64,000 bases of DNA from a phage, in NCBI GenBank assembly GCA_012646185.1, contig GCA_012646185.1_4706.1; one strand, given 5' to 3'. Shown in pieces: positions 424 through 57,299 of the stretch. Below the pieces are notes generated by a model. That model was not told where the DNA came from and did no database searches. It worked only from the letters and a program-made list of their open reading frames with translations. The translations under genes were made by a program, and so were the position numbers. Numbering within the stretch: position 1 is the first letter of the stretch; each line of letters begins with the position of its first letter.

Positions 424-435
424 TTATTTAGCCTT

Positions 436-2867: not shown

Positions 2868-2875
2868 CATAATAA

Positions 2876-2911
2876 CCCACCCTACTACCCCGTTAAGGGC
2901 GGTAGGGTGGG
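2876..2911. terminator. GC-rich hairpin between convergent genes (CCCACCCTAC...GTAGGGTGGG)
   Basis: 10-bp perfect stem read directly from sequence, lying between the stops of the 2025..2867 and 2919..3350 genes. Confidence 0.55.
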
Positions 2912-2918
2912 ATAAGGT

Positions 2919-3350: not shown

Positions 3351-3353
3351 TGA

Positions 3354-4880: not shown

Positions 4881-4930
4881 TGTAAACCTCATTAATCATT
4901 GTCCGTATGATAGCCCAAAGTTGTACGGTA

Positions 4931-5482: not shown

Positions 5483-5536
5483 GCGTGTGTCCTTGATAGT
5501 ATGAAATTTCCAATACAACTTAACCGAGGACGTCGA

Positions 5537-6877: not shown

Positions 6878-6879
6878 TT

Positions 6880-7506
6880 ATGGCTGTAACACGCATGACG
6901 CCAAGTCCCGGTGCGGTCGGGGTATTCACAGTATCAGCGCCGTTTACCGTTGGTGCGTCAACGCTATATACCGTTACAGCGTTGCGAAGATTCAGCGAAG
7001 TCATCGGTAGTGGAATCGATCTATTTGCGGAACTGTACGAACCGTTATCAATAGACAAATCCACATTCGAAGCGCATCTCGAAGCGAATGCTTATCTCGT
7101 CACGTTGCAACCGGATTACGGTGCACCCGTACTGGTACCTGATACGTATATCACGTCGTACCCAAAGAACGATTCCTTGCGGTATCGTCGCATTATTCTG
7201 GGTATCGATTTCGGGCCTCTTCCTCCCGGTCTTGACCTTTCGTATTTAACAACGATATTGAAAGGTAAGGCTAGTGATATTCTTGGTGTCGAACCTGAAG
7301 TTAAAACGATGGAAATCACTCTCGATGATACCGTTACTCAGGAACAACATCAGATAAACGAAGCCTGTCGTCAGGCTGCGATAAAAGAGCGGGATACCAT
7401 TTACGCACGCTGTGAAACGCAAGAGAAGCAGATAACGGCTTTACTTGCAACCCAAAAGCAACTTATTAAATTGCTTCAAGACGCCGGTATTAATCCGACA
7501 CCTTAA
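6880..7506 (+). CDS. hypothetical protein (208 aa)
   Basis: ATG with GGAGG SD embedded in the end of the upstream gene (the track start at 6874 is TTG). Confidence 0.55.
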   Translation: MAVTRMTPSPGAVGVFTVSAPFTVGASTLYTVTALRRFSEVIGSGIDLFAELYEPLSIDKSTFEAHLEANAYLVTLQPDYGAPVLVPDTYITSYPKNDSLRYRRIILGIDFGPLPPGLDLSYLTTILKGKASDILGVEPEVKTMEITLDDTVTQEQHQINEACRQAAIKERDTIYARCETQEKQITALLATQKQLIKLLQDAGINPTP

Positions 7507-7614: not shown

Positions 7615-8316
7615 TTAAGATGCAGATAATCTCGCGTACTTCTGGCGAACATGGTTCTTACGGCGAACTTCGTCGTCCTCGTCACGCCATTCGAGGTAAG
7701 CAACGAATCGACGTAACTGCGCCGCCGTCATCGTTGACGAGTGGTCTTCTACGTCTAGAACAACGTAACGAACGTCACCAACACCATCACAATCAACGTA
7801 ACTGAATACCAAAAGACCATCACCGTATTCAACGATGGTAACTTCGAATCGTTTATCGAACAAATAAAACAGTTCCGATTCAATGATCATCGGAATGACG
7901 CACATATCAGCACGATTGAGGATTTCCATCATCACCCGTAACGCGCGAGGAGTATGGCGAGCGAACTGGTCGTTAAAACGTTGTTTCATCGCTTGTTCCA
8001 CGCCATCTGTTTTTGTTCCAAACCACGGACGTACTACAGATTTCGGTGGTGTAAGACGAAAGCGATATGCTTGTATAAACAACAGAATATCAGCGACGTT
8101 GGGAAATTCTTCCTGGTCTTCGTATATCTTGCGGATAATATCCGGAATCGTAACCATCAAGTATTTCTTATCGCCTCCCACTTTCTCGAGATTAGCAATA
8201 TGCCCTTCTACCACCGGCTGGTAAATGAAATTATACCAATGACGGTATCTTGCAGTACGTTGGTAGTTTGGGATAAAATTAAGAATAATACTCACTGCGC
8301 GTTTTAACGGGTTCAT
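7615..8316 (-). CDS. hypothetical protein (233 aa)
   Basis: ATG with AAGGA SD. Confidence 0.55.
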   Translation of the reverse strand: MNPLKRAVSIILNFIPNYQRTARYRHWYNFIYQPVVEGHIANLEKVGGDKKYLMVTIPDIIRKIYEDQEEFPNVADILLFIQAYRFRLTPPKSVVRPWFGTKTDGVEQAMKQRFNDQFARHTPRALRVMMEILNRADMCVIPMIIESELFYLFDKRFEVTIVEYGDGLLVFSYVDCDGVGDVRYVVLDVEDHSSTMTAAQLRRFVAYLEWRDEDDEVRRKNHVRQKYARLSAS

Positions 8317-8330
8317 CGAAAGGATCCTTC

Positions 8331-8744
8331 TTATGTTTTAATATGCACATCGTCAATCCCCTCGGTAATCCAGCCGATGGGAAGGACAACCGTTGTTATC
8401 CTGTTATGGGTGTAGTGGTTGAGAAAATGGAAATAGTAATTTTTGTTAGACTGTTCGATCCGTAGGTCGAGGTGCGCGTCTTCAGGTAACCGTAACCAAG
8501 CACCGTACAGCTCATTAAACTTACGCTGAATTTTACCGGGGTTCATTGGAACCCCACGACCACGACGATGTAGCTGACGTAATGATTCAATCAAACACTC
8601 AGAGATACCCGTTGTCGTTCCGTTATCGCTTGTATCAATAACGATGAACTCTCGTGACCCACGACCGAGATAAAACCCAGCGACAAAAGCTGCAGCAACA
8701 AAAATTATCGTACCGATACCAATATACCAATAGTAAGTATCCAT
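8331..8744 (-). CDS. membrane protein with N-terminal TM helix (137 aa)
   Basis: ATG at 8744 with GTGAGGT SD (track start 8765 is TTG); hydrophobic YIGIGTIIFVAAAFVAGFYL. Confidence 0.5.
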   Translation of the reverse strand: MDTYYWYIGIGTIIFVAAAFVAGFYLGRGSREFIVIDTSDNGTTTGISECLIESLRQLHRRGRGVPMNPGKIQRKFNELYGAWLRLPEDAHLDLRIEQSNKNYYFHFLNHYTHNRITTVVLPIGWITEGIDDVHIKT

Positions 8745-8755
8745 AACGACCTCAC

Positions 8756-9283
8756 TTATACCCAATAGTCGGCAAGCGGTTTTACCTTATTAATGGGCAA
8801 CTGTACTTTACCGATGTTCTCTACATCCGCATCAGCGTAGAGAACAATTTTATCATCGTCTCTTTCCCAACGAATAGTAAATCGACCAGGAAGAAGATTA
8901 CTCTGTTCAAGAGACGCAGTAACCTGCTGCGTCAAAACAGACAACCAAGCAGGCATCAATGTTGCAATATCTAAGTCATTTGACCACTCAGCACGTTGCT
9001 CCACTGGGCGTAACATACGTTCGACGGTGCGTTGAACCGTTGCGGTGATATAGCCTTTATCTTCGTCACTGATTGGATCAGGACGAGACACAAAACGTTC
9101 AGCAGGTTTACGGGAAATATGCTCATGCAAATCGATGAGTGGTGTTGTCATAGTACTCGCTCCATCAGAATGTAATTGGGTAACCCGTAGGGTTGTCTGC
9201 ATGCTATTCAGAAGCGCAAAAGCGCCATAAACAACAACGATACCAAGTATAGCCAAAACAGAAATCATTAACGTGTATTGCAT
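8756..9283 (-). CDS. membrane protein with N-terminal TM helix (175 aa)
   Basis: Second ATG has GGGGAG SD at proper spacing; hydrophobic LMISVLAILGIVVVYGAFALL. Confidence 0.5.
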   Translation of the reverse strand: MQYTLMISVLAILGIVVVYGAFALLNSMQTTLRVTQLHSDGASTMTTPLIDLHEHISRKPAERFVSRPDPISDEDKGYITATVQRTVERMLRPVEQRAEWSNDLDIATLMPAWLSVLTQQVTASLEQSNLLPGRFTIRWERDDDKIVLYADADVENIGKVQLPINKVKPLADYWV

Positions 9284-9319
9284 TGTCATCTCCCCCTACA
9301 TACGCATCTTGAAGATCGG

Positions 9320-9379
9320 TTAAAAACAACAAAAGAAAAAACGATATAAAGCAAGGTCCTCTGATATCAGAGGACCTTG
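9320..9379 (-). terminator. 13-bp perfect-stem hairpin (CAAGGTCCTCTGA-TA-TCAGAGGACCTTG) followed by T-rich tract on minus strand
   Basis: Immediately downstream of the 9386..10042 stop; canonical intrinsic-terminator architecture in minus orientation. Confidence 0.6.
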
Positions 9380-9385
9380 GATCAA

Positions 9386-10042
9386 TTAGCTTGCAGCTTC
9401 TTCATTTGTATCAGGTTTGCTTCCCCCTAACAAACCGTCAAACAGACCCGTATGTTTCAGGTAGAAGAGAGCGATAGCGCCCATTGCTGCTGCGCTCGTC
9501 GCCGTTAACGCAACCCCGGCACGATACTGCCATTTACGGTCAGGCTTTTGATCGAGAGCCATACGACGCATGTATTCAGCCTCTGCTTCATTCCGATGAA
9601 TTTCGGATTCAGCCAAGCGGGCTAAGGTATCGCGGTCAAGGTTATCATAACGTACGTTCATGGTGGTTTCCTCTTGTTTGGAAGTTGATTGCTTAGTGGA
9701 TTCTTGGTCAACAGTCGTTTCAGATGGTTCAAACGGCTGGTTGTTCATTTTCTGATCTTTATTGGTCATGATAGACTCCTTCAATTTTTGAGACGAAATT
9801 GATTTAAACCATCGTGGATGACGGTATTCAGTTTTACATGTGCAGTTAAGTTTCTCGTGCAGGAAAGCGTAAAAACGTTTTGCGCCTACACGTAAGGCTT
9901 TCAGCATTACCCATCCACGAGCACTCAAACGGTGTAGCTGTTGCGGTATGTCGAGTTTCCTAGCCAAGCGAAAGTATCTTTCAATCACTTCGATAGGAAA
10001 CCATTGTTGTTCCACATCGGTGAGACTGAAAGTCTTATCCAT
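9386..10042 (-). CDS. C-terminally membrane-anchored protein (218 aa)
   Basis: ATG start; C-terminal hydrophobic segment GVALTATSAAAMGAIALFYL; start codon ~24 nt from motif copy 1. Confidence 0.5.
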   Translation of the reverse strand: MDKTFSLTDVEQQWFPIEVIERYFRLARKLDIPQQLHRLSARGWVMLKALRVGAKRFYAFLHEKLNCTCKTEYRHPRWFKSISSQKLKESIMTNKDQKMNNQPFEPSETTVDQESTKQSTSKQEETTMNVRYDNLDRDTLARLAESEIHRNEAEAEYMRRMALDQKPDRKWQYRAGVALTATSAAAMGAIALFYLKHTGLFDGLLGGSKPDTNEEAAS

Positions 10043-10066
10043 GAATGAAATCTCGCTGGCTTACTT

Positions 10067-10093
10067 CACTTAAGTAATATAGCCGTGAAAAAT
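10067..10093 (-). promoter_or_regulatory. conserved 25-nt motif copy 1 (plus strand TCACTTAAGTAATATAGCCGTGAAA)
   Basis: One of four near-identical intergenic copies; minus-strand reading contains TATATTAC. Confidence 0.45.
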
Positions 10094-10192
10094 GTTGGAT
10101 TAAGTTAAATACCGCAACCGCAGCTAATTTTATAGGCTTTTAGCCTAAACCAATCATCTTCGGAATCATCATCTTTGAAACAGGAATCTATC

Positions 10193-18749: not shown

Positions 18750-19139
18750 TTAACGCGTTGCATTCTGGATGATTTCTTTTCCGATCTTAACCAAAGCGGG
18801 TATCTGTACAGCGGTTGCGCCTCGATGACGAAACGCGGTCGTTAACGCGGTATCGATACTCACCGCACGTCCGTGAAGACGATCGAAATAGACTTGAGTG
18901 ATTGCGGTAGCGTAATCCTTTCGCTGTTTCTTGGTTTGGCTCAACAGCACCGCACTATGACTAACGATGAAGTAAGCGATTAAGAAGAACGCTGCTGACC
19001 GCGAACCGGGTAGAAAACCTTGTCGCTTAGGGAGCATCTCACAATCGCGAACACTATTATCGTTCGCAAGATCTTCCATATCAACACAGCATAATTTTGC
19101 ATAGGTGTGGAGATAGTGGGTAAAAGTTGAATTTAACAT
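18750..19139 (-). CDS. hypothetical protein with one hydrophobic segment (129 aa)
   Basis: ATG with GAGGAAAG SD; last gene of an 8-gene minus-strand operon. Confidence 0.5.
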   Translation of the reverse strand: MLNSTFTHYLHTYAKLCCVDMEDLANDNSVRDCEMLPKRQGFLPGSRSAAFFLIAYFIVSHSAVLLSQTKKQRKDYATAITQVYFDRLHGRAVSIDTALTTAFRHRGATAVQIPALVKIGKEIIQNATR

Positions 19140-19244
19140 TTTCTTTCCTCGATTACAATGAGTTCAATGTATAGCTTAAACGTCACAGAACGACGTATAA
19201 CAGTTTGTTTTAATTTCTAAGGGGTTTCCCTATCTAAGATTGAT

Positions 19245-19607
19245 TTAAAGCGTTCTGAAGAGTTCTGTCGCGTTCTCGTCACGTAAACAGGCTTCGTTCA
19301 ACAATTCAGCTAACAGCTTCGACCGAACTTCAACAAATGTCCTGAGGCGATGCTCCCATTCTAAACGGATGGTGTACGTATTATCCAGGTTTTTGTAATC
19401 AACGACAGATGTAGAACAACGGGCTTCGCGTTTGTTCACGGCACCCCAAACATCACGGATAACCGTCACGCCTTTCTTGGTGCATGTAAACGTTAAAATA
19501 AAGCGATTATTCGCAGCTTCTTCACGGACGCCAACAAATTCACTTCGTAACGATGAGACTTTGATCAGTCGGTCAATAGCTAACGATAAACCGATACGTT
19601 GTTGCAT
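19245..19607 (-). CDS. hypothetical protein (120 aa)
   Basis: ATG with AGAGGGGA SD placed in the end of the upstream gene. Confidence 0.5.
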   Translation of the reverse strand: MQQRIGLSLAIDRLIKVSSLRSEFVGVREEAANNRFILTFTCTKKGVTVIRDVWGAVNKREARCSTSVVDYKNLDNTYTIRLEWEHRLRTFVEVRSKLLAELLNEACLRDENATELFRTL

Positions 19608-19608
19608 A

Positions 19609-20034
19609 TCAAATCCCCTCTTTCAGAATCTCATTAAGACCGTCAGTAATCCAGTCGAACTTCGTCTTAATCATGGCTGGGTTCAATCCATATACTTCCC
19701 ACACAAGCTGGGGTTTATGTGTTCCATCGTCCAAACAAAGCACATCGATTGAGAGTACCATACCACCCGTCAATTTCATGTTCTCGCAACTACGAAGATA
19801 TGCGGATTCTAGCAATACTTTCCCTAACGCAGTGCAAGCAAATGTTAACCGGGAAGAGTACAGGTACGATGACGTTTTACAGTAGGTTGCTGATATCGGT
19901 TGAATATGTTTGCGGAGTTTGGCGTCTTCACGTAAAAGCAATAACGTGTGATGTAACCGCGTATGCTCGGTAACCGATGAGCTATACTCACCGATACACT
20001 CTTCGGCGACTGATTTAGGCCATTTAATTTTCAT
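19609..20034 (-). CDS. hypothetical protein (141 aa)
   Basis: ATG with GAGGAA SD. Confidence 0.5.
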   Translation of the reverse strand: MKIKWPKSVAEECIGEYSSSVTEHTRLHHTLLLLREDAKLRKHIQPISATYCKTSSYLYSSRLTFACTALGKVLLESAYLRSCENMKLTGGMVLSIDVLCLDDGTHKPQLVWEVYGLNPAMIKTKFDWITDGLNEILKEGI

Positions 20035-20049
20035 GTTCGATTCCTCGTA

Positions 20050-20493
20050 TTAACACTGTGTTCCATTCGATAAGCGGGTGGTATCAAAACGATCCAGTTG
20101 GTGTACAATGCTATCAGCAACACGATGCAAATAGTGTATTTTGTCCATTCGTGAAATCGCAGAAATCGTCCAGCAAGCCTCTGACGTCCAATAGGTGCCG
20201 TCTTCACTAAGGCTAACGTTATAAACTAACTTCGTCATCACATTTCTCGCCTTATGCTCAGCAGACCAGAATATGTTTTCTAACACATCCTTCCCCGTTT
20301 GTGAAAACACGAACCCAAGCTTCACGTCGAAGTCGGATGCTTCAAGATTAACGCAGTGAAGATGATTCTCTAACGGCGCAAAAGAGGCTAAACGTTCCAG
20401 CGCATGTTGCAGTGTGGGATGATCGAGCTTTTCGAGATCGTCCACAGGTTGTTCAGGTACAATCGCGATCGATTTACAGAATTTAATTTCCAT
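20050..20493 (-). CDS. hypothetical protein (147 aa)
   Basis: ATG with AAGAGGAA SD; weak N-terminal resemblance to the 19609..20034 product. Confidence 0.5.
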   Translation of the reverse strand: MEIKFCKSIAIVPEQPVDDLEKLDHPTLQHALERLASFAPLENHLHCVNLEASDFDVKLGFVFSQTGKDVLENIFWSAEHKARNVMTKLVYNVSLSEDGTYWTSEACWTISAISRMDKIHYLHRVADSIVHQLDRFDTTRLSNGTQC

Positions 20494-20605
20494 GGTAGGT
20501 TCCTCTTGATAGTGGTTGATGATAGTAACGGGGACGGCGATGTCCCCTTGGTTTCTTATTGCCCCGCCCGAACCCGATGGGGTACAGGCGGGTGATGTTG
20601 ATGCG

Positions 20606-21013
20606 TTATAGCGGCATCAGACGTTCTTTAAGTTGGGTTAACTTATTTGCAACGATGTTCTCAACGTCGATCATCTTGTTCATGTTGTCGAGGGTATCCT
20701 GCCAGATGAAAATATCCACGGAACCGGTTCCGACTAACGCGTTCTCAGGACGATGGTCACGGGTCACGTAGCGTGGTCTCTGCGGGCAGGTTTGTAACTC
20801 GATCCAAAGCGCATCTAACGGACCGTGGTCCGTGACACCTAAGGCGAAGAATTCACCTCGTACGACCAGAACATCATCAGCCGTCCTGACACGGGTTGAT
20901 CCTTCGTACACCAATTCCATCTTTGCTCGACAGGCTGGGTTCTCGTTCCACGCCTGGACGGCATCGGCAAGGGCTATTGACGTTGCGGTGGTGTTCGTTT
21001 GATCATGTTGCAT
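20606..21013 (-). CDS. hypothetical protein (135 aa)
   Basis: ATG with GAGGAG SD. Confidence 0.5.
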   Translation of the reverse strand: MQHDQTNTTATSIALADAVQAWNENPACRAKMELVYEGSTRVRTADDVLVVRGEFFALGVTDHGPLDALWIELQTCPQRPRYVTRDHRPENALVGTGSVDIFIWQDTLDNMNKMIDVENIVANKLTQLKERLMPL

Positions 21014-21050
21014 TCTAAGCTCCTCAATCGTTCTACAACGAACTTTTAAT

Positions 21051-21073
21051 GGAAGGGAATATGTTTCCCTTCC
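21051..21073 (-). terminator. hairpin GGAAGGGAA...TTCCCTTCC (attenuator/terminator candidate)
   Basis: 9-bp stem between two operon genes; no T-tract, so possibly a processing or attenuation site. Confidence 0.35.
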
Positions 21074-21091
21074 TTGGGTTAGGTTATTGCG

Positions 21092-21367
21092 TTACACGGC
21101 TTTACAGCTTGCGTAAACCACAACTGTTCCGTTGTTGATTGCTTCAACCACATCCCGGGTTAACACAACGGCGTTATCGCTTCGAGACGACGGTGCGTAA
21201 TACCCTTCACCGTTCTCGGTAATCAGGCGATAACGGACTAAGCCTATGCTCGGTTCAACACGTAGCACCTTCTCAAGTTTGTATTTGATGATCTTCGTCA
21301 GGCTGACTGTGTCTGACGCGTAGATTGCTTTATAAACCTTGTTCTTTGCTGTCGGTTTCATCAACAT
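21092..21367 (-). CDS. hypothetical protein (91 aa)
   Basis: ATG start; weak SD. Confidence 0.45.
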   Translation of the reverse strand: MLMKPTAKNKVYKAIYASDTVSLTKIIKYKLEKVLRVEPSIGLVRYRLITENGEGYYAPSSRSDNAVVLTRDVVEAINNGTVVVYASCKAV

Positions 21368-21407
21368 GATTTCTGTTGTATTTTCCTTTTCGCTTGTTGG
21401 TGTTGGA

Positions 21408-21707
21408 TTAAGGTTTAGGTTCCGTTTTGTATTGTGCGAGTAATGTGTTGATCTGCTCCCGTTGTTCTTTTAAGTATGCGGGAAGCTGGTCTTCCCGTAC
21501 CGTTCCGATTTCCAACGTGATGTACCAGCGTTGTTCGGAAGCCTGCCATTGAAAACTGCTCTGTAGCCGTAGGATGCTAGGATCACGTACCTTGCTTGCA
21601 CTGTAGTGATCGAACCAATCCAGGTATTCTGCTTTCCCTTCCTCATCGGCAACGTAACGCTGCACGCTGTTCTTCCCTTTGTTTTCGTATCCCGTTGCAC
21701 GTATCAT
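21408..21707 (-). CDS. hypothetical protein (99 aa)
   Basis: ATG overlapping the upstream stop (ATGA) with AGGAGA SD; preferred over the 58-nt-overlapping upstream start. Confidence 0.45.
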   Translation of the reverse strand: MIRATGYENKGKNSVQRYVADEEGKAEYLDWFDHYSASKVRDPSILRLQSSFQWQASEQRWYITLEIGTVREDQLPAYLKEQREQINTLLAQYKTEPKP

Positions 21708-22486
21708 GCGAACGTTTCTCCTGTAATGTGTTGCGGATGGCGTAGCATGGTAGCATCCCATTGTACGATCCGGCTCCGGCTTACCAGCATCATGACGGAT
21801 TCATCGTCAAGCCCTGGCTGCGCAACCGGCAACCAACGTTCGTTAAGCACCTTCGCTTCAACACGTTTCTTGCGGGGATTGTAGCGCACTTCGCTAACCC
21901 AAGCGAATCCAAGTGGATGCACAACCCGTGGATAATACATGCGAAGCAATTGATGCATCCGATCCGTTGCCTCCAGATTGCAATCCACCATGTAAGGTTT
22001 CACCATGGTAAGCTTTTTGGTGTAATACGTTCCAACGGTATGGTTACGCCAACTTGGCAAGGCATGATCCCCTTCTCTCAGTTTGCTATCCGAGTTCATC
22101 GGCCAGACCTGCTGTTTACCGGCCAGCATCGCGTACTGCCGATCAACGCAACGAACCTGATCGGCGAACAATGGATCCAGAACATCATCCACCGCACCCT
22201 TATTGCGATAACCGTGATGTACCACCAACCTGCTTGCGCTCATCGATGCGGGATGCTGGCTCTTATGCGCATACAGCCCACCGTCACCGCGAGGGTCGTA
22301 AAGATAGCCGCATGCGCCACGCCATATCACCTTGCCTACGGTTCTCTCGTTTTCAAGCAGCATCGTCGGCCCATCAAGCAAATTGGTGAACCACTGCACC
22401 TTCACGCATTCCGCTTGGACATGCTCAGGTAATGCCTGATACTCTTTTTGGGTGTATAAGGTATCAAAAATGATTTCATCGTTCAT
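21704..22486 (-). CDS. hypothetical protein (260 aa)
   Basis: ATG with GAGGA SD; first gene downstream of motif copy 2. Confidence 0.55.
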   Translation of the reverse strand: MNDEIIFDTLYTQKEYQALPEHVQAECVKVQWFTNLLDGPTMLLENERTVGKVIWRGACGYLYDPRGDGGLYAHKSQHPASMSASRLVVHHGYRNKGAVDDVLDPLFADQVRCVDRQYAMLAGKQQVWPMNSDSKLREGDHALPSWRNHTVGTYYTKKLTMVKPYMVDCNLEATDRMHQLLRMYYPRVVHPLGFAWVSEVRYNPRKKRVEAKVLNERWLPVAQPGLDDESVMMLVSRSRIVQWDATMLRHPQHITGETFA

Positions 22487-22568: not shown

Positions 22569-22593
22569 TCACTAAGGTAATATAGTCGTGAAA
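22569..22593 (-). promoter_or_regulatory. conserved 25-nt motif copy 2 (plus strand TCACTAAGGTAATATAGTCGTGAAA)
   Basis: ~83 nt upstream (minus orientation) of the 21704..22486 start. Confidence 0.5.
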
Positions 22594-23286
22594 GGATTTG
22601 TGTTACAGAAAGGGTTTTGTTGTGTTTTAAGAAGGGATGGATTTAGAAGAGGTGTTTCATGGAAGGTAAACGAGGATAGGTATTTTGATTTAAGTAAGTA
22701 AGATGTTATCTGTATTCGTTAAAAGTGTATTGTTTATCTTAGGTTATGTCTTATTGTTTAATCGTTTAATATTTTTATCTAAGTAGGTTTAACTCTATCT
22801 TGTTTGTATATTTAAATTAAATCAATAAGCTTATCTTCAAAACAATGGATAACATGTGTTTACTACCTTAACGGTAACACATGTCATCTGTGCATTACAC
22901 TCCGTTATCACTTCGTTACATGCTTATAAGTTGGATAACTCAAAAAAACATTTGTGATACTCTTCTTCACGTTGTTCATCAGAGTATCTCGTCTATACTC
23001 ATTGCATTCGTATACGACATAACCGTTATACGCTAACGCTACGCTTATAGCTTGATAACTCTAAGGATAAAAACATAAACTCGCTTCGCTCGTTTAGTTT
23101 TTCTTTTTCTTAGAGTTATCCTGTTGCTCGTCTCTAAAGGACTTCGCTCCTCCCCCGTCCCCCGAAGGGGCCGGAGTCGTGGAAATTTTACTTTCCAAAT
23201 ACATTTACAACATCTGTAAACTTTTACTCCAGGTACTTAATCTTATCATTAGAAATTATAAAGAGAAGAATAAACACAAACATAAA

Positions 23287-23318
23287 CCTTCCTCCAACCC
23301 AACAGGGAAGGAGGAAGG
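23287..23318. terminator. conserved CT/GA hairpin (minus-strand reading CCTTCCTCCTTCCC-TGTT-GGGTTGGAGGAAGG)
   Basis: Directly downstream of the 23335..24228 stop. Confidence 0.6.
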
Positions 23319-23334
23319 GAGAGCTTGATTTTAA

Positions 23335-44406: not shown

Positions 44407-44682
44407 TTATCTCGAGGTTAACCACGATTCAATTGTGGTGAGGTTGCTTCGCAATACGCGCCAACTAGGGTGTGGTGGGATCACAGCACCTTGGTCGATT
44501 ACGGTTAGCTGAGCCTGGTACTTCTGTTTCATACGGGCTACCGTAGCGTTTACCGAAAGGAAAAGCTGGTAACGTTCGTACGCCGTCAGTACAGCATCCA
44601 TTTGGATTGCTTCGGTTGCTAAAACGATTTCGCGTAAGTCCTTTGCGTCCATCGGGACAGTAATGAGTTTATAATGACTCAT
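44407..44682 (-). CDS. hypothetical protein (91 aa)
   Basis: ATG with AAGGAAA SD. Confidence 0.55.
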   Translation of the reverse strand: MSHYKLITVPMDAKDLREIVLATEAIQMDAVLTAYERYQLFLSVNATVARMKQKYQAQLTVIDQGAVIPPHPSWRVLRSNLTTIESWLTSR

Positions 44683-44731
44683 AGGGTTTCCTTATCAACC
44701 AGGGTATCGCGTTAACAATACCCATCGTCAA

Positions 44732-47269
44732 TTACTGCTCTTCACGTTCCAGCAGATACTCGGAAGCGGTAATACCGTTTACCGTACGTACTGCTTTCAG
44801 ACGAGTATCATCGCTCAGAATTACAGTAACAGATTGCAGACCTTTTACTTTGGTTTCGAAGGTCTTGAACACCTGATCCAGCATACGAGCAATGCTTGGG
44901 TTGGTTGCAGCAGATGCGTGAGTGTAACCGCTCTGGTTCAGCTTCAGAATCTTGGCGTTGGTCGGTACGCGAACAACAACATGCGGACGCATCGCGAACA
45001 CGCTGTGATTGAACCAGTAAGCATCGTTGCTATCTTCGTCGGTAACGATGTCTGGATTAACACGCATATCCTCGATAGCCGCATCCGCCAAACGACGTTC
45101 GATTTCGTCAGCATCCAGAGAACCATCTTTCTCCAGTTCTGCACGATACTCACTCATGGCAACCAGATGACGTTCACGATTCGCTGCGGATTTTTCGTGA
45201 GCGGCTTTCAGGTAGTCATGCATGTTGTACAGTTCTGCCATGGAAAGACGAATGTTCCACTGACCTTCGCCGTCACGATTGCAGTAGAGACACTTCAGCA
45301 TGTTGACCCAGGTATAGTAGCAATTGGAGAATTCATCTTCAATGAACTTCTGGTCCATTTTAAGATCGTGAATCAGCCAACCGGACAGTTCTCCGATATC
45401 ATCAACGAAGCTAGAGATGGTGGTTTCAGAGAAGTTCTTCGGTACGATACGTTTGATCAGCTTGTTAACGTCTTTGGTCATGCTATCATTCAGGAAATGC
45501 CAGATACGCAGAGGAATGACATCTCGATACTGTTGCATGATCTGACGATAAGCTTTGATATCGTCGCTACGACCTTTATCAATAGACAACGCATCCAGGA
45601 ATTCATGGATTGCATCCAGCTCTTTGTCGGTATAGGTTCCCAGATAGGAATTGACGGTGGCCAGGAATGCTAATGCGTCGTTTTGGTTGACGTCGGTGTT
45701 GGTCTGCTGAATGATCGCTACTGAAGCTTTGGTTTCAGCATCCTCAACGCTTGACGCTGCGATCGCGTCGGTGACGGTAAACAGTTTCATTTCGCGCTGC
45801 TCACCGACAACGATTGGCTCACGCTGAACCGGCTTGTTAAGACTAACACGAACAACTTCTGCTTGCGCGATACGATCCAGTTTTGCCATTTCCTGCTCTG
45901 CCATACGACGAGCGGTTGGATCTGATTCAAGTTCGATGTATTCCACTTCTTCCTCCGTGAGGGATGTAATGTCAACAATGGTTTCATGAAGAATTCCGTT
46001 TTCGTCGATACGTGCTCGACGAGCGAAGTGCCTGAAGTCATACAACGTCGGCCAACGACTATTAGGTGCAAAGTCTTTGGCTTTCAGACGCATCTGCATA
46101 AATTCTTCATGTTGAACAACACGACCGTAACGCTTAGCATCTTCGGTCGCATCAATTGGATTAACGGTCTTTGTTGCCGTAGCGGAACGAGCCGTACGAA
46201 CCGGTTCAGGTTGAACGGGTTTCTGCTGCCCAGCCTTAACATGCCATTCTGGCTCTTCGTACTGCTCAGCAAATTGCTCAGCGGCTGCAAAGATATCGTT
46301 GATACCACCAATATCTCCTTCAGGATTTGTCGAGTAAATCCGTGGTTGTGGTGCCTCGTAACGCGGCGCTGTAGCAGCAGGTGCGTCATCAACGATAGGA
46401 TCGTCATCACCAACATCATACAAACGGTTGAACGCACAATCCTTCGAATCAATGTACGATGGCGTTTGTGGTTGGACAACCGTCGGCCGAGGTTGTGTGC
46501 CGTATCCTGGTGTTGTTGGAGCCATACCACGCATAACTGCTGGGTTAGGTTGGTATTGTGGTTGCGGGTAGGTTCCACCATACATGGCGTACGCAGGCTG
46601 TTGCGGTTGACCATACCCGTTGCTAACCATCGCACTTGCTTGCGGACCACGATAAGTCATCCCCATCTGCATCACCTGCTGCTTCAAACCACGTGACTTC
46701 TGAGCGATTTGCGCTAGGCTTCCGCTTTTATTCAGCTGCGTGTACTTGTTCGCGGCTTCCGGGTTAATGCGTGATAATTCAATCGCGCGATAATATTCCG
46801 GGTACTGATTCGGTTCAAAGAGCCACGTTACAAGATGATACAGCGCAACTGTGCTCACAGCAGCAGAGACGATCTGGTCGTCGGACGCGTTCTGTGGCAT
46901 CGGGTTGATGTAAGAGAACACGTTCCAACAACAGTCTTCAACAAGCGATTCCATCATCATATCGTTATTGGTATAACGTGCGACGAACTCGGTTTGTATT
47001 TTGTCTTGCTGAGCGAAGTCTTTCAGGACATTAAAGATGGCTTGACGGATTTTGACGATCGTCGCTTCTTGGGTGATGAAGTTATAGTTCTGCTGATATG
47101 AGGGTTGTTGGTATTGTGGTGGTTGATAGGCGTTATTCGGGTATGCGCCGTACGGCGATTGCTGATACTGTTGCTGACGAACCCGTTCAGCCGCATAATT
47201 AACCGTGCTCGTATAGGGGTTTTCGCTATAGCCCATTTGTTGATACATGTTGTTACTGCCATTATACAT
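44732..47269 (-). CDS. large protein with Q/Y/P-rich low-complexity regions (845 aa)
   Basis: ATG with AAGGA SD; N-terminal and central Gln/Tyr/Pro-rich low-complexity segments. Confidence 0.65.
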   Translation of the reverse strand: MYNGSNNMYQQMGYSENPYTSTVNYAAERVRQQQYQQSPYGAYPNNAYQPPQYQQPSYQQNYNFITQEATIVKIRQAIFNVLKDFAQQDKIQTEFVARYTNNDMMMESLVEDCCWNVFSYINPMPQNASDDQIVSAAVSTVALYHLVTWLFEPNQYPEYYRAIELSRINPEAANKYTQLNKSGSLAQIAQKSRGLKQQVMQMGMTYRGPQASAMVSNGYGQPQQPAYAMYGGTYPQPQYQPNPAVMRGMAPTTPGYGTQPRPTVVQPQTPSYIDSKDCAFNRLYDVGDDDPIVDDAPAATAPRYEAPQPRIYSTNPEGDIGGINDIFAAAEQFAEQYEEPEWHVKAGQQKPVQPEPVRTARSATATKTVNPIDATEDAKRYGRVVQHEEFMQMRLKAKDFAPNSRWPTLYDFRHFARRARIDENGILHETIVDITSLTEEEVEYIELESDPTARRMAEQEMAKLDRIAQAEVVRVSLNKPVQREPIVVGEQREMKLFTVTDAIAASSVEDAETKASVAIIQQTNTDVNQNDALAFLATVNSYLGTYTDKELDAIHEFLDALSIDKGRSDDIKAYRQIMQQYRDVIPLRIWHFLNDSMTKDVNKLIKRIVPKNFSETTISSFVDDIGELSGWLIHDLKMDQKFIEDEFSNCYYTWVNMLKCLYCNRDGEGQWNIRLSMAELYNMHDYLKAAHEKSAANRERHLVAMSEYRAELEKDGSLDADEIERRLADAAIEDMRVNPDIVTDEDSNDAYWFNHSVFAMRPHVVVRVPTNAKILKLNQSGYTHASAATNPSIARMLDQVFKTFETKVKGLQSVTVILSDDTRLKAVRTVNGITASEYLLEREEQ

Positions 47270-47303
47270 TTCTTACGATCCTTTTTATTTATTCGGTTAT
47301 GTG

Positions 47304-49100
47304 TCAATCGATTATGTCGTGATCGTTAATTTCTACAATTTCTTCATCGAATCGACCGACGTCTTTCTTCAAGCCTGCATTGGTTGCTGCAACGTCATTT
47401 GCAATTTGTGGGGTAATGATTAACCGACCGCGCTCATCGATAGGTGCGTACATACTGAACTTCTGACGTCCGGTTGGTTCGGAGTGTGGAAGATTCAGAT
47501 AGCTTGCACAGAACGGGATGGAACCACTAACCAAACGACTCTCGTCAGCCAATGCAGCACCGCCTGCGTTTTGGCTCTGGAGAACAACATGCGTGCTCAC
47601 TTTGAACAGCATGCAATCACCAGGTGACTGAATCGATGTTGCCACTTTCTCACGTTTATCACGATTGCTCTGGATATTGAGAATCGCTTCCGTTGCAACT
47701 TGATTTCGCAACGCCTTCTGTACATCGCGATTGGTCATCTCTTTACGGTTGTTCTGTCGTTTACCACGTTCTGTGGTTTTAAGATGGAACCCCAGTTTAA
47801 AGATGCTCTTACGCACATCCTCCATGACATATTCCAACACCATCAATTCCTTACCGAACATCGTCGTGGTGTCAACACGACTCATTTCGATAGTGACATT
47901 GTCAATCAGATACGCCATAAATTCATAGAAGTCGTCGCAAGGAATATTTTCCTGTTTGAACTTCTTCTGCTGAATTTCGTCAACGTAAAGATCGAGACTG
48001 TCGATGTGGTGGTTTACATCACGCAACAAACGCGCATCCGCATTGTTGTTATTAAAGATAATCAAACCGAGTAATGTACGCCAATGGTCTGGCGCATTCG
48101 CGAACTCTTCAACCGGATAGTCTTCCGGAAAACGATCGTAATAACGGTCGATGAGATACAAGAATGCACCGACAAGGCCAAGAACAATACGTTCCGTGCC
48201 TCCACGTCTTACAGCAATTTGAATATCAGGATGTTTGTAACGTACAGCGCTAGCGCTACGGCTTTTACCGCTTTTGCTGATACTAAAGCCTTTAGGAATA
48301 ACCCCCATGGTGCGATAGATTACCCATTGGTCACGCGGAAAATCACGTTCAGCAAGGTTCCGTCCGGTTACGGCTTCGACACCTGCAAAACGTCGGAAAC
48401 ACTCACCCACCCCGTACTTCGCAAAGAGATAGTGACCCAGTGTGGTTACGCTGGTGTGGTTGATGTTGTCACCGTTCACTTTACTTTGTTTAGTAAGATG
48501 ATAGATTTGCGACCAGGGTAATGACAGGTAATGACGATAATCGATACCGGTCGGTGTATCGTTGCTCAGGAACTGATACGGTGTACGTTTAACCGTGATT
48601 TTGTCACGCGGAAGCATGATGAACGCCATGTCTTTCGTGTAACTGATTACGGGGTCAGCGAGTACCGCACTGAGAATGAAGTTCGCACCACGTAGACGCA
48701 TTTTACCACCCTGACCTACCGCGGGTAATAGGAGAGGATGTCGGATAATGCAGTAGTCCTTTCCGGGTTCACGACGGTCACCTGATTCCATCGCGCCGTA
48801 CCAGCGGAATTCTAGCATCACCATAAACACATCGGAAGGCGCAAGGTCGAAGGTCAGCTTACCGCTATCCTTCCCTTTGGTTTTCTTTCCTCCGCTTAAG
48901 TAGTGGAACTGTTCGCGGGCCATACAGCGACGCAGGCCATGATACACCAGATCCTTAGGTAAACTATCTTTGCTGTTCCGCCAAAGACGATCAACATAGG
49001 ACTCAACATCTTGCATCTTATCGACGACGATGTTGCGTGCTATCTTCTCGTTCATCTTCGGTGCAAGCTCAGCGACAGCTTTGCAGAATCTAGGATCCAT
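47304..49100 (-). CDS. hypothetical protein (598 aa)
   Basis: ATG with AAGGAG SD (track start 49103 is GTG). Confidence 0.6.
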   Translation of the reverse strand: MDPRFCKAVAELAPKMNEKIARNIVVDKMQDVESYVDRLWRNSKDSLPKDLVYHGLRRCMAREQFHYLSGGKKTKGKDSGKLTFDLAPSDVFMVMLEFRWYGAMESGDRREPGKDYCIIRHPLLLPAVGQGGKMRLRGANFILSAVLADPVISYTKDMAFIMLPRDKITVKRTPYQFLSNDTPTGIDYRHYLSLPWSQIYHLTKQSKVNGDNINHTSVTTLGHYLFAKYGVGECFRRFAGVEAVTGRNLAERDFPRDQWVIYRTMGVIPKGFSISKSGKSRSASAVRYKHPDIQIAVRRGGTERIVLGLVGAFLYLIDRYYDRFPEDYPVEEFANAPDHWRTLLGLIIFNNNNADARLLRDVNHHIDSLDLYVDEIQQKKFKQENIPCDDFYEFMAYLIDNVTIEMSRVDTTTMFGKELMVLEYVMEDVRKSIFKLGFHLKTTERGKRQNNRKEMTNRDVQKALRNQVATEAILNIQSNRDKREKVATSIQSPGDCMLFKVSTHVVLQSQNAGGAALADESRLVSGSIPFCASYLNLPHSEPTGRQKFSMYAPIDERGRLIITPQIANDVAATNAGLKKDVGRFDEEIVEINDHDIID

Positions 49101-49139
49101 CACACACTCCTTTCAGAAAGTTGCTTAAGCAGATTAAAG

Positions 49140-50576
49140 TTACTTTTTCGATGACGCCTTTTCAAGAATCTTGAAAAAGGTCATACCTATACCGACAACG
49201 GCCGCGGTTATGCTCGCAGCGGCTTTCCAAACATCGACGTTACGTTGACGTCGCGCTTCTTCCGCTTCACGTTGTCTTTTTGCCTCTTCATCACGTCGAC
49301 GTATCTCAGCAGCAAACTCGTCGTGCTTACGTTTGGCTTCTTCGTCTCGACGACGAAGTTCAGCGACGAATTCTTCATGTTTGCGTTTAGCCTCGTCATC
49401 ACGACGTTTTAAATCAGCTTGATAATCTTCGTGTATTTGTTTACGTAGATCATCTTGACGCTTCATTTCGGCTTGGTGTTGTTCCATCCTACGTTTTTGT
49501 TCGTCTTTAAGCTGATCGAGTTCGGCTTTATGTTGTTCATCGCGCAGCTTTGCGTCGGCGCGATGCGCCTCATGCATCTGTGCGATAACTGCCTTGTGTT
49601 CATCCGCCATACGCCGCATTTCAGCCATCACCCCTTTAAGGGTTTCTTCTGATGCCTTACGTTCGTAGCTACGCTGGTCGAAATCATTTTTGTAGGCTTC
49701 TTTTTGGATGGGGTCGCGCCAATGCAATGCCGATTCACGTGTCGGAAAAACATTGTACTTCCACATCTCTTTTTCCAAATCTTCGACCGGTACGAAGATG
49801 GAGTCATTATTCCCGAAGGTAACCAACATACCTGGCGCGCCTGCTCCATTCGTTGGTTTTATTTCGAACGCTTTCCCCAGCACGTTAACCCATAAGCTAT
49901 ACGGATTATGAAAGTCGGGTGGCGTCCAATGGATAGTGAGTTGCGTTCCGAGAATCCGGAAACCCTCTGTTTTTCCCGTCAAGCTCCGCGCGCACGTTGC
50001 GATGTAGGGGTGATCAATCCCTTTCGTAACGTGGTCTGCGCTTTTGTATTCTCCTTTAACTTTTACGATTGCCACGTTGATTTGCGCGACATAAGCAGGT
50101 TGATTAAAGTTCAGCGTGTTGAGGTCAATTTGACATATTTCATCCAGCGTATCGTACCAGTCTTGCTGGTCTAATAGACGCGGCATTTTCTCAGCGTTAA
50201 CAATACGACGGATATGCGGTTTCCTTATCGCGTAACCTGTGCCGTTTTTAACACGGAGTATATCCCGACGTCTACCCGCGTAGACGAAGTTTCTGAATGC
50301 ACCATTCGCATTAGATACGTCATGGCTGTCAACTATTACAGGACTACGAAATTTTGAACGTCGTACGATCCTGAATGTATTGCCGTCCTCAACCCTACCA
50401 GGAATGTACTGGAACATATTGTCGGAGGTGATAACCAACACGGTATGGCCAGATTCATTAATACATGCCCATCCTAATTCCAGGTCATATAACGGTTCAG
50501 CATAACCGTCAATGCGATAAGCGTGCGTACCATCCCACGGTTCGAACGCGGTATCACATATTGGCATGGAGGGCAT
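49140..50576 (-). CDS. protein with charged coiled-coil repeats and C-terminal TM anchor (478 aa)
   Basis: ATG at 50576 with GGAGG SD (track start 50582 is TTG); tandem RRDEEAKRKH-EF-AE-RR repeats then hydrophobic AAASITAAVVGIGMTFF. Confidence 0.6.
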   Translation of the reverse strand: MPSMPICDTAFEPWDGTHAYRIDGYAEPLYDLELGWACINESGHTVLVITSDNMFQYIPGRVEDGNTFRIVRRSKFRSPVIVDSHDVSNANGAFRNFVYAGRRRDILRVKNGTGYAIRKPHIRRIVNAEKMPRLLDQQDWYDTLDEICQIDLNTLNFNQPAYVAQINVAIVKVKGEYKSADHVTKGIDHPYIATCARSLTGKTEGFRILGTQLTIHWTPPDFHNPYSLWVNVLGKAFEIKPTNGAGAPGMLVTFGNNDSIFVPVEDLEKEMWKYNVFPTRESALHWRDPIQKEAYKNDFDQRSYERKASEETLKGVMAEMRRMADEHKAVIAQMHEAHRADAKLRDEQHKAELDQLKDEQKRRMEQHQAEMKRQDDLRKQIHEDYQADLKRRDDEAKRKHEEFVAELRRRDEEAKRKHDEFAAEIRRRDEEAKRQREAEEARRQRNVDVWKAAASITAAVVGIGMTFFKILEKASSKK

Positions 50577-50725: not shown

Positions 50726-50750
50726 TCACCTAGGTAATGTAAGCGTCAAA
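50726..50750 (-). promoter_or_regulatory. conserved 25-nt motif copy 3 (plus strand TCACCTAGGTAATGTAAGCGTCAAA)
   Basis: Between the family hairpin and the 49140..50576 start (minus orientation). Confidence 0.5.
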
Positions 50751-50784
50751 TTTTTTCTATTCGCAACAATAAACGGCATAGAAA

Positions 50785-50814
50785 CCTCCCCCAACCCTTA
50801 CGGGCTGAGGGAGG
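50785..50814. terminator. conserved CT/GA hairpin (CCTCCC-CCAACCC-TTAC-GGGCTGA-GGGAGG)
   Basis: Downstream of the major structural gene stop in minus orientation. Confidence 0.6.
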
Positions 50815-50913
50815 CTGACTTATGTATCACGGTGCCGGATGAATGTCCGGTGCAATGAAACCATCCGCAACGTTGTCGTCAAGAATATCGTCCAACGAAG
50901 CAGCTACGGTAGT

Positions 50914-55630: not shown

Positions 55631-55957
55631 TTAACTTATTGTCATGAATTCATTAGGTGAAAATTTCCAGCCGTTCTCAGTGAGAAGCGTGTTGAGTTTC
55701 GCTGCAACGATAAGCCATGCATGCATGGCTGTTACATCGTATTGGCGATTCACTCGACGTTGGTTTTCGATATTGATTTGCTCCTGTTCAGTGATGTTTG
55801 GATAAAGTGCGATAGCGCTAGGTTTACCCAGCGCGCTAGTCATCACCGCCGTACATTCACTGATAATGTTGTTTAAGTGGTAGTTATACACCGTTCCACG
55901 CATGACGCGATGACGGCATTCGATAATAGCGTCGTAAATGATTTCTCGAGTAATCAT
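55631..55957 (-). CDS. hypothetical protein (108 aa)
   Basis: ATG start, weak SD. Confidence 0.5.
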   Translation of the reverse strand: MITREIIYDAIIECRHRVMRGTVYNYHLNNIISECTAVMTSALGKPSAIALYPNITEQEQINIENQRRVNRQYDVTAMHAWLIVAAKLNTLLTENGWKFSPNEFMTIS

Positions 55958-55963
55958 GATAAT

Positions 55964-56365
55964 TTAAAACATACGGTCGTTTTTAGCACGGGCGTCCATT
56001 ACCAGATCGTAGATGCCTGCGGTTCGTAAGCACTCTTCGTAGTAACGATGTGTGCCTTCCTCAGCCATCCACGATAACCCACGGCTATCCGCAACAATAA
56101 CCAGTTTGTTATTGTTGAACGCACACACCACACGGTAGGTCGCGTTGTTATTCGGATCGCGAGTGATAAGTTCGTAAACGCCGTTAACAGGTTTACTGAA
56201 TTCACCGTTTAACGGAACGAGTTCGGTAGTACCTTCAGCAAACGTTACGTTGATCGGTGATGGGTCTTTAGCGATAACAGTATATTCCACATTGTGTTCT
56301 TTACTGGTCATAATACCGAAGTAAGAACTCACAGGGGAACGTGGTACACTAAGAATATTAAACAT
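55964..56365 (-). CDS. hypothetical protein (133 aa)
   Basis: ATG with AAGAGGA SD. Confidence 0.55.
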   Translation of the reverse strand: MFNILSVPRSPVSSYFGIMTSKEHNVEYTVIAKDPSPINVTFAEGTTELVPLNGEFSKPVNGVYELITRDPNNNATYRVVCAFNNNKLVIVADSRGLSWMAEEGTHRYYEECLRTAGIYDLVMDARAKNDRMF

Positions 56366-56435
56366 AGATGTTGTCCTCTTAATTGGATTTAGATTGTTGG
56401 GTGTGTTATTGGGAAATGAAAACGTTGTTTCGGTT

Positions 56436-57005
56436 TTAGACGATGAGTGACCAGGTGGTAAGCACCCCGCTTGCGAATTCGAGCTTAAGACGTTTACCGA
56501 TAAGTTGTTGTTGGATCATCTTCTCGGTGATACGTCGATCATGCTGAACCGCTTTATCAAACGCTTCTTTCGCTTCAGCTTGGTAGAAGTTCGTTTCTTC
56601 GTTTTCGTCGATCTCTTCGAGAGCATCGTCGTCGATGTCAGCAAGTTTCACTCGACCGTTTTCATCAGGTTGTTCTGCAGGTTCATTGTCATACGGCGTG
56701 TCTTTTGTTGGTGCGACACGATGTTGCAACTCGACCTGCGTTAACATGATCTCCATCTCACCATCGATAGGAATGATTTCATCGGCGCTGCCGTTTTCGG
56801 TCAGCTCTCGACTTTCCAGTAATGTCGTCGTAACAGAGAACACCTCTTCAACAGGAACCTCATCATCGTCGATGGTGTTAACCGTATTGCTGGTAACTTC
56901 GGCAACAACCATCAAATCAAATGCGTGAGGGTCACCTGGCATTTTGATTCCTGGAAGTTTGTTGAGGTACCAAGGATCAAGAATCATGATTTCTGGATTA
57001 AACAT
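56436..57005 (-). CDS. highly acidic protein (189 aa)
   Basis: ATG with AAGGT SD; Asp/Glu-rich (DDDEVPVEE, DIDDDALEEIDENEE); ~200 nt downstream of motif copy 4. Confidence 0.55.
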   Translation of the reverse strand: MFNPEIMILDPWYLNKLPGIKMPGDPHAFDLMVVAEVTSNTVNTIDDDEVPVEEVFSVTTTLLESRELTENGSADEIIPIDGEMEIMLTQVELQHRVAPTKDTPYDNEPAEQPDENGRVKLADIDDDALEEIDENEETNFYQAEAKEAFDKAVQHDRRITEKMIQQQLIGKRLKLEFASGVLTTWSLIV

Positions 57006-57207
57006 CGTATTTTACCTTTCTATGTTAGGTGGATTGCGGATAGAAGAATCAATGCATAGATTGATAGTTCTTTGTTAGAAATTATTGCCGAACCGGTTAT
57101 GGTTATAACGCGTGTTTTCGTATTCTGACGGGTCGCGTATTAATAAGGCCATGACTGTATCCTCGATTATTAAGAGAAATTTACAACGATAACAGTAACC
57201 GCTGTTA

Positions 57208-57232
57208 TCACCTAGGTAATGTAGTCGCGAAA
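57208..57232 (-). promoter_or_regulatory. conserved 25-nt motif copy 4 (plus strand TCACCTAGGTAATGTAGTCGCGAAA)
   Basis: 35 nt from the family hairpin at 57268; same arrangement as copy 3. Confidence 0.5.
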
Positions 57233-57267
57233 TAAACTGGAGTAATGCGAAATAAGACAGCATAGAA

Positions 57268-57299
57268 CCCTCTCCCAACCCATCAGGGAAGGGAGAGGG
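57268..57299. terminator. conserved CT/GA hairpin (CCCTCTCCCAACCC-ATCA-GGGAAGGGAGAGGG)
   Basis: Directly downstream of the 57304..58671 stop. Confidence 0.6.

Follow-up and report, generated by a model that had tools for sequence, protein, structure and literature searches.

Candidate early promoters of a Goslar-like nucleus-forming jumbo phage: four minus-strand sites in a 64-kb stretch and their counterparts across the Goslar genome

Known early promoters and the Goslar-type element

According to a published review, every jumbo phage that encodes its own RNA polymerase has an AT-rich motif near -10 upstream of its early operons, and transcript profiling, wherever it was done, has confirmed this motif as the early promoter. 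ONT-cappable-seq of phage 201phi2-1 showed that its early promoters share conserved sequence at -10, -20 and -30; the same holds for phiKZ, whose early transcription is independent of the host polymerase. Initiation by the virion polymerase that is resistant to rifampicin and independent of protein synthesis has been reported for phiKZ and AR9. A conserved intergenic element of this kind occurs four times in a phage DNA stretch of 64,000 nucleotides (contig GCA_012646185.1_4706.1 of assembly GCA_012646185.1; the whole stretch is referred to as the window), and the copy at 50.7 kb is the focal one. With a probability of about 0.88, the four sites are minus-strand early promoters of a Goslar-like nucleus-forming jumbo phage (Chimalliviridae), most likely read by the virion RNA polymerase. 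This assignment follows from the conservation of the element, its orientation, its intergenic placement, its homology to known early promoters, and its match with the early gene blocks of Goslar.

Goslar is a nucleus-forming jumbo phage of the Chimalliviridae, related to phiKZ. Along its entire length, a 14-kb stretch around the focal copy shares 97.6% identity with Escherichia phage vB_EcoM_Goslar (237,307 bp). Literature searches that included the 2025 and 2026 reviews and text searches for the motif found no published early-promoter consensus for Goslar; literal motif strings returned unrelated papers only. The Goslar RNA sequencing (RNA-seq) paper never uses the word “promoter” (bioRxiv 10.1101/2023.09.20.558163). 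The element itself belongs to an already known class, the phiKZ-like virion-polymerase early promoters, joined in places to a conserved terminator. Conceptually it was expected, as reviews already state that such a motif exists in every polymerase-encoding jumbo phage. What is new is modest: an explicit 38-nt consensus, a 14-site map of Goslar, and an exact fit to published expression data.

A degenerate motif search of the window, allowing at most three mismatches, found exactly four sites, all matching on the plus strand (10066-10090, 22569-22593, 50726-50750 and 57208-57232), against a mean of 0.00 matches in 100 dinucleotide-preserving shuffles. The earlier note on this DNA, made from the sequence alone, had proposed a 25-nt motif in four copies. 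The motif is real and its four copies are borne out; the coordinates given for copies 2-4 stand, and only copy 1, which had been placed at 10067-10093, needs correction. A position-weight scan of the window revealed no fifth copy, the next best match scoring 12.3 bits compared with 43-49 bits for the four. Each copy is intergenic and lies upstream of a minus-strand gene start (10042, 22486, 50576 and 57005), just as the note had described. Its length of 25 nt describes the core rather than the full extent: conservation reaches 13 nt further on the upstream side (5' on the minus strand), giving an element of about 38 nt (Table 1). At copy 2, the differences between the window and Goslar are confined to degenerate positions.

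The aligned copies give the minus-strand consensus TtAAt.cAaaawwTTTCACGnCTAYATTACYTwnGTGA. Among the positions that never vary are two A's in the upstream part, the G of TTTCACG, T-A-ATTAC within the core, and T-G of GTGA. All four window copies have TAYATTAC, as do 13 of the 14 in Goslar; the remaining one reads TACATAAC. Positions are numbered with the invariant G of GTGA as +1, after the AR9 early spacing TATATTAT-(6N)-G; the final G in AR9 is read as the start by analogy with the AR9 late motif, whose last base is stated to be the start. On this numbering, the element would consist of an A-rich -30 region (TtAAt.cAaaaww, about -36 to -24), a -20 box (TTTCACG, -23 to -17), an AT-rich -10 core (TAYATTAC, -14 to -7), and a start region (YTwnGT-G(+1)-A), positions that agree with the published -30/-20/-10 description. 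Minus-strand transcription of copies 1-4 is thus predicted to start at the G's at 10067, 22570, 50727 and 57209; the predicted start of copy 1 is 25 nt before the ATG at 10042. A TCAC/GTGA stem inside the motif was considered and rejected, being broken in two of the four window copies.

The closest published counterparts are the predicted early promoters of N1M2 (TBYAWWWWWTTTCARRYAKATATTATYWAAGTGWA), OBP (BSHAWWWWWTTTYARRYAKATATTATYWWADTG) and 201phi2-1 (...TTTRARR_BTATATTACDWHDGTG), together with the phiKZ core TATATTAC (PMC7058600 Table 2). The minus-strand element aligns column for column with the N1M2, OBP and 201phi2-1 consensi, showing the same boxes in the same register. The resemblance of TAYATTAC to the phiKZ early core, pointed out in the earlier note, agrees with the published core. 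Across the phiKZ-like early promoters (phiKZ, 201phi2-1, OBP, N1M2 and EL), the shared features are the TAYATTAC core, a -20 TTTCA/TTTRA box, an A-rich -30 region, a GTG near the start, an intergenic position co-oriented with small early-gene operons, and placement upstream of the chimallin and non-virion polymerase genes. The Goslar lineage differs in carrying CG at -18/-17 (TTTCACG), a “TtAAt.cA” upstream element and, as the third base of the core, a Y (half of the copies have TACATTAC). It also has about 14 copies per genome, compared with 28-32 in phiKZ.

The chimallin gene (chmA), which encodes the nuclear shell, allows a direct positional comparison. Its upstream regions were compared in Goslar and six other phages. 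The site reads TGAAAAAAATTTCAGGGTTATATTACCTAGGTGA in Goslar and TGAAAAAAATTTGAGATTTATATTACTAAATTGA in phiKZ, with the core beginning 80 nt ahead of the start codon in either phage. The phiKZ core also occurs, with similar flanks, upstream of chmA in RAY (-77), Eowyn (-137) and Proteus phage 10 (-70), and the core in PhiPA3 and Noxifer is TATATCAC. In phiKZ, a primary start site linked to the early motif has been mapped for the chimallin gene PHIKZ054 (gp54), and the Goslar chmA copy is therefore the positional counterpart of an experimentally mapped early promoter. The proposal that the functional reading is the reverse complement is upheld by these chmA-upstream promoters of phiKZ, RAY, Eowyn and Proteus phage 10, as well as by the published early consensi.

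The mapped early consensus of AR9, a Bacillus jumbo phage, is AAATATATATTAT-(6N)-G; it shares the core family with the Goslar-type element (TATATTAT versus TAYATTAC) and the conserved G 6 nt past the core. Unlike Goslar, AR9 has uracil-containing DNA, forms no nucleus, and lacks the TTTCACG box. Coliphage N4 likewise uses a particle-carried polymerase that reads phage-specific early promoters independently of the host. The N4 enzyme is single-subunit and recognises a DNA hairpin promoter with host gyrase and SSB. The two systems are unrelated in sequence and mechanism.

Genome-wide copies and early expression in Goslar

The whole annotated Goslar record served as the complete genome for a motif search. 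A matrix from the four window copies identified 13 strong Goslar sites, and a 38-nt matrix was rebuilt from those 13. With it, Goslar has 14 copies, 13 at 29.9-49.5 bits and one at 19.7 bits; the best match in 20 shuffled Goslar genomes reached 16.3 bits. Every copy is minus-oriented and precedes a minus-strand gene by 23-203 nt. Coding sequence makes up 92.9% of the genome; 11 copies are wholly intergenic, two overlap the end of a neighbouring gene by a few bases, and one falls within the annotated 62-codon gp047, whose start is doubtful. The bare TAYATTAC string shows the same bias (22 occurrences on the minus strand, one on the plus strand). The genome-wide search suggested by the earlier note thus revealed neither scatter inside open reading frames (ORFs) nor any loss of orientation bias. 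The Goslar counterparts of window copies 1-4 lie at 2552, 15052, 43251 and 49717. For the 14 Goslar copies, the predicted minus-strand starts are 2553, 15053, 43252, 49718, 86691, 113783, 142786, 151620, 160777, 166055, 172964, 187625, 201930 and 226681.

Expression data for Goslar come from Armbruster et al., who compared control infection with chimallin knockdown by RNA-seq. Without chimallin, infection stalls in the early-infection vesicle that holds the injected virion polymerase, only the virion-polymerase programme runs at this stage, and the knockdown transcriptome matches 5-20 min of wild-type infection (bioRxiv 10.1101/2023.09.20.558163). Per-gene reads were taken from Supplementary Table 2 of that work and expressed as the log2 fold change (log2FC) of knockdown versus control. 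The genes fall into two sharply distinct classes: those lost (about -3 to -8) and those retained (about 0 to +1.4), referred to below as late and early.

Along the minus strand there are nine late-to-early block boundaries, before gp004, gp021, gp040, gp046/047, gp075, gp159, gp225, gp214 and gp200. A motif copy is present in all nine boundary gaps (hypergeometric p = 8e-13, for 14 gaps drawn at random among the upstream gaps of 216 minus-strand genes). The four window copies are the counterparts of the first four boundaries. Copy 1 corresponds to the site upstream of gp004 (+1.24), where the divergent gp005 is late (-6.7), and copy 2 to the site upstream of gp021 (+1.25), where the upstream gene gp022 is late (-4.8). 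The focal copy 3 corresponds to the gap between the major capsid gene gp041 (-4.1, late) and gp040 (+0.96, early), and copy 4 to the gap between gp048 (-3.2) and gp046 (+1.1).

The remaining five Goslar copies sit within retained regions, and the ratio rises after each of them: from 0.1 to 1.0 before gp105, from 0.07 to 0.5 before gp165, from -0.5 to 0.9 before gp175, from 1.0 to 1.26 before gp182, and from -0.7 in the plus-strand neighbour gp245 to 0.9 before chmA. For all 14 copies, the first downstream gene has a log2FC of +0.48 to +1.26 and stands above its upstream neighbour. Every Goslar copy thus marks the 5' edge of genes still transcribed at vesicle-stage arrest, which favours the suggestion that a phage-encoded or virion polymerase recognises the motif. 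The RNA polymerase genes are divided in the same way. The retained genes gp165, gp171 and gp247 lie downstream of copies, which precede chmA-gp247, gp165 and the gp175-to-gp171 operon (all outside the window); the late-class polymerase genes gp078, gp196, gp205 and gp207 do not. Of these, gp247 is the β' subunit of the non-virion RNA polymerase and gp196 a tagged subunit of the virion RNA polymerase (bioRxiv 10.1101/2023.09.20.558163).

A mechanism can be proposed on this basis. The virion-packaged multisubunit RNA polymerase would be injected with the DNA into the early-infection vesicle, would recognise the element without a host sigma factor or new protein synthesis, and would then transcribe the leftward early-gene operons. 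Goslar is the E. coli model for nucleus-forming phages and the early-infection vesicle, and in its data set the 38-nt consensus, with its 14 sites, accounts for every early/late boundary. The consensus also allows start sites to be predicted with single-nucleotide precision and at least one gene call (gp047) to be corrected, and it offers both a ready-made early promoter and terminator for engineering phage reporters and a defined template for virion-polymerase biochemistry.

Alternative readings of the conserved sites

Several points weigh against the early-promoter reading. Which polymerase initiates at the motif is deduced indirectly, and the exact start nucleotide is predicted by analogy with AR9. 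The RNA-seq table reports whole genes, apparently without resolving strands, and shows early blocks and not transcription starts; it also comes from Goslar and applies to the window phage through the 97.6% identity. Some early-class genes have no nearby copy, e.g. gp183, the plus-strand gp145, gp172 and gp233. There may be copies beyond these 14, or these genes may be accounted for by read-through and unstranded counting. Separately, the early-region ratio jumps to about +1 just after some terminator hairpins without a motif, e.g. at gp184 to gp183 (0.3 to 1.0) and at gp235 to gp236 (0.3 to 1.0). Such motif-less jumps (gp183, gp156 and gp236) could reflect terminated read-through by a second polymerase, or early promoters too divergent for the matrix.

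A host sigma-70 promoter would use TAYATT as its -10 element and a TTAAYC-like sequence 16 nt upstream as a weak -35. Two further observations speak for it and so against a phage-specific promoter: TATATT matches TATAAT at five of six positions, and a lenient sigma-70 scan reports GTAACA-16-TATATT (9/12) at 22606-22579, overlapping copy 2. The statement of the earlier note that no convincing sigma-70 pair is present was therefore slightly overstated, although it holds for three of the four copies. Only copy 2 passes even the lenient scan, the -35 region is TTAA and not TTGAC, and none of the window copies combines two good hexamers (TTGACA and TATAAT) at a spacing of 16-18 nt. The best-conserved positions, namely TTTCACG in the would-be spacer, the final C of TAYATTAC, and GTGA, lie outside sigma-70 preferences. 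The same motif is moreover common to Pseudomonas, Klebsiella and Erwinia phages, the injected genome shares its vesicle with the virion polymerase, and early transcription in phiKZ and its family does not depend on the host enzyme. A sigma-70 promoter is accordingly highly improbable.

Placement at the head of early operons is also compatible with a binding site for a phage DNA-binding protein (a repressor or activator operator, or a site of genome organisation), the real promoter lying elsewhere in the gaps. Placement alone cannot tell a promoter from an overlapping operator, and short palindromes (CCTAGG and CTTAAG) are present in some copies; these vary among copies, however, and include CCTTCA, CTTACG and CCTAAC. 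The element is asymmetric, 38 nt long, and built of three boxes at the -30/-20/-10 spacing of mapped early promoters. At copy 1, only 23 nt separate its end from the start codon, and no other conserved sequence is present in the gap to the divergent gene, leaving no room for a separate promoter. An operator in place of a promoter is thus considered very unlikely. The earlier note had also raised plus-strand action, in which the copies at 50.7 and 57.2 kb would yield hairpin-terminated small RNAs of 60-90 nt. Motif and hairpin are indeed only 34-35 nt apart, and the 57.3-kb hairpin folds almost symmetrically (-26.6 kcal/mol, z -4.6, on the minus strand versus -24.5 on the plus strand). The 50.8-kb hairpin, in contrast, is far stronger in minus-strand RNA (-30.0 kcal/mol, z -5.3, versus -18.5), because two of its pairs are G-U there. 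The TTTCA...TAYATTAC...GTG order faces minus-strand genes in every related phage, the conserved tail TTATGCYGT lies on the minus-strand side only, 11 of the 14 Goslar copies have no nearby hairpin, and no Rfam family matches anywhere in the window. Motif polarity, tail side and G-U pairs all favour the minus strand, and the small-RNA proposal is abandoned as extremely improbable.

Probable terminator-promoter modules, operons and distant relatives

With the sites read as early promoters, their surroundings in the window can be described (Table 1). At 50.7 and 57.2 kb, the promoter is joined to a hairpin. In phiKZ, 61 terminators were mapped by long-read sequencing, with the motif BCCYCCCCHWWDGGGRRGGBYTTATKYYGT, i.e. 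a hairpin followed by a TTAT region (Putzeys et al. 2024). The window tails match the ...GGBYTTATKYYGT part of this motif on the minus strand, downstream of a gene, supporting the assignment of the window hairpins as putative phiKZ-type terminators. Both groups have a C-tract/G-tract hairpin with a 4-nt loop, then TTAT-G-YYGT, lie after genes on the transcribed strand, and occur in dozens of copies per genome. Compared with phiKZ, the tail of both window modules has an extra C (TTCTATGC) and the stems are longer (13-14 bp), often with a 2x2 internal loop. Goslar has about 25 intergenic hairpin-plus-TTATGC sites, mostly on the minus strand; the window has five hairpin-plus-tail sites (7543, 11039, 50786, 57269 and 62575).

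Table 1. Coordinates of candidate promoters, terminators, operons and a small ORF in the window
Feature	Position	Strand	Sequence or remarks
Candidate early promoter, copy 1	10066..10103	-	TTAATCCAACATTTTTCACGGCTATATTACTTAAGTGA; 49.3 bits (38-nt matrix)
Candidate early promoter, copy 2	22569..22606	-	GTAACACAAATCCTTTCACGACTATATTACCTTAGTGA; 46.2 bits (38-nt matrix)
Candidate early promoter, copy 3 (focal)	50726..50763	-	CGAATAGAAAAAATTTGACGCTTACATTACCTAGGTGA; 43.5 bits (38-nt matrix)
Candidate early promoter, copy 4	57208..57245	-	TTACTCCAGTTTATTTCGCGACTACATTACCTAGGTGA; 43.4 bits (38-nt matrix)
Putative terminator of the major-capsid unit	50773..50815	-	arms 50785-50797/50802-50814; tail TTTCTATGCCGT (50784 down to 50773)
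Putative terminator after the gp048 homologue (ORF 57304-58671, -)	57257..57299	-	arms 57268-57281/57286-57299; tail TTCTATGCTGT (57267 down to 57257)
Operon of copy 1	7615..10042	-	homologues of Goslar gp004 to gp001; Goslar log2FC +0.2 to +1.3
Operon of copy 2	18750..22486	-	homologues of Goslar gp021 to gp014; Goslar log2FC +0.8 to +1.4, all eight genes
Operon of copy 3	44407..50576	-	homologues of Goslar gp040, gp039, gp038, gp037; Goslar log2FC +0.7 to +1.2, all four
Operon of copy 4	55631..57005	-	homologues of Goslar gp046, gp045, gp044; Goslar log2FC +1.0 to +1.3
Putative 25-codon ORF	57075..57152	-	MALLIRDPSEYENTRYNHNRFGNNF; GAGGA ribosome-binding site; in 204-nt leader of copy 4

Each module has its hairpin between the end of a late gene (at 50914 for the capsid gene, at 57304 for the gp048 homologue) and an early promoter; a third such module is found in Goslar before gp075. 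Motif and hairpin are separated by 34 nt at 50.7 kb (50750 to 50785) and by 35 nt at 57.2 kb (57232 to 57268). The earlier note had joined two copies to the family hairpin as terminator-promoter modules, a reading supported by the tail match, and its spacing of 34-35 nt is correct. The shared GCATAGAA(A)CC box that it placed between them is not an element of its own but the conserved 3' tail of the terminator in reverse complement, and the box written as GCATAGAAACC is the complement of the tail TTTCTATGCCGT. In the proposed arrangement, the terminator would end the preceding late unit (major capsid or gp048 homologue), and the promoter 34-35 nt downstream would start the next, placing late and early units head to tail yet mutually insulated.

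Two further ideas about the modules were rejected. Coupling at a fixed spacing does not hold: hairpin end and TTTCA are separated by 34, 34 and 36 nt in the three modules of Goslar and by only 24 nt in the orthologous module of a relative from IMG/VR. A dual role of the terminator tail as a late promoter is also unlikely. Within the tail lies TATG, which is also the 4-nt core of late promoters in phiKZ, and several late genes begin 35-60 nt past such a hairpin and tail. The enrichment in Goslar is weak, however (TATG in 31 of 62 late versus 25 of 76 early upstream gaps), and no GC hairpin precedes p119L, the model late promoter of phiKZ.

Protein matches in the window are few. Pfam and PHROGs name only the gp039 homologue (PHROG 2943, “polymerase”, 7.4e-120) and the capsid protein (ORF 50914-53136 on the minus strand; Pfam PhiKZ_MCP, 4.5e-216); the other genes are unannotated and give no timing from protein function. 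In Goslar, the annotated start of gp047 (49584-49772, 62 codons; window 57075-57279) lies upstream of the hairpin and promoter. This start is probably wrong, because transcription would begin at the motif, downstream of it. Within the 204-nt leader of copy 4, the 25-codon ORF of Table 1 is the only one that is well placed.

The element was also sought beyond Goslar. Scanning IMG/VR for the exact pattern revealed the motif in Goslar, two close relatives and four uncultivated contigs of 214-229 kb (3300041411_000178, 3300015261_000002, 3300015262_000001 and 3300048924_000100). The proteins of these four contigs are 23-30% identical to those of Goslar, and the motif loci show no nucleotide similarity to Goslar, yet the contigs carry TTTCACGTCTATATTACTTGGGTGA or TTTCACGTCTATATTACTTGTGTGA, i.e. 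the same 25-nt core. The promoter is therefore far better conserved than the surrounding proteins. The shared 25-mer, together with a chmA promoter that can be aligned from phiKZ to Goslar, raises the tentative idea, on balance doubtful, that virion-polymerase promoter specificity is ancient and nearly frozen across nucleus-forming phages. In that case, early promoters could be cross-read between distantly related phages in a co-infection, the 14-site set of Goslar would be the complete first-wave regulon in a tractable E. coli system, and this system could help identify the promoter-recognition determinant of the virion polymerase. The four contigs seem to represent an undescribed sister lineage of Goslarvirus.

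Two further observations concern the window itself. Between the gp022 terminator and copy 2, a stretch of about 740 bp (22607-23334) has no ORF of 60 or more amino acids and a GC content of 26-39% against about 50% in its flanks. It contains several GATAAC/GTTATC inverted repeats (e.g. 22848-22860/22876-22888 and 23054-23073/23101-23120). Rfam and tRNA scans of the whole window, this stretch included, returned no match. Possible identities of the stretch are a replication origin, a site related to packaging or an unannotated RNA. The window also spans the arbitrary start of the Goslar record, its positions 1-7500 corresponding to about 229,800-237,307 in Goslar. The same hairpin and tail occur at both ends of that record (23 and 237275), indicating a short terminal overlap in it.

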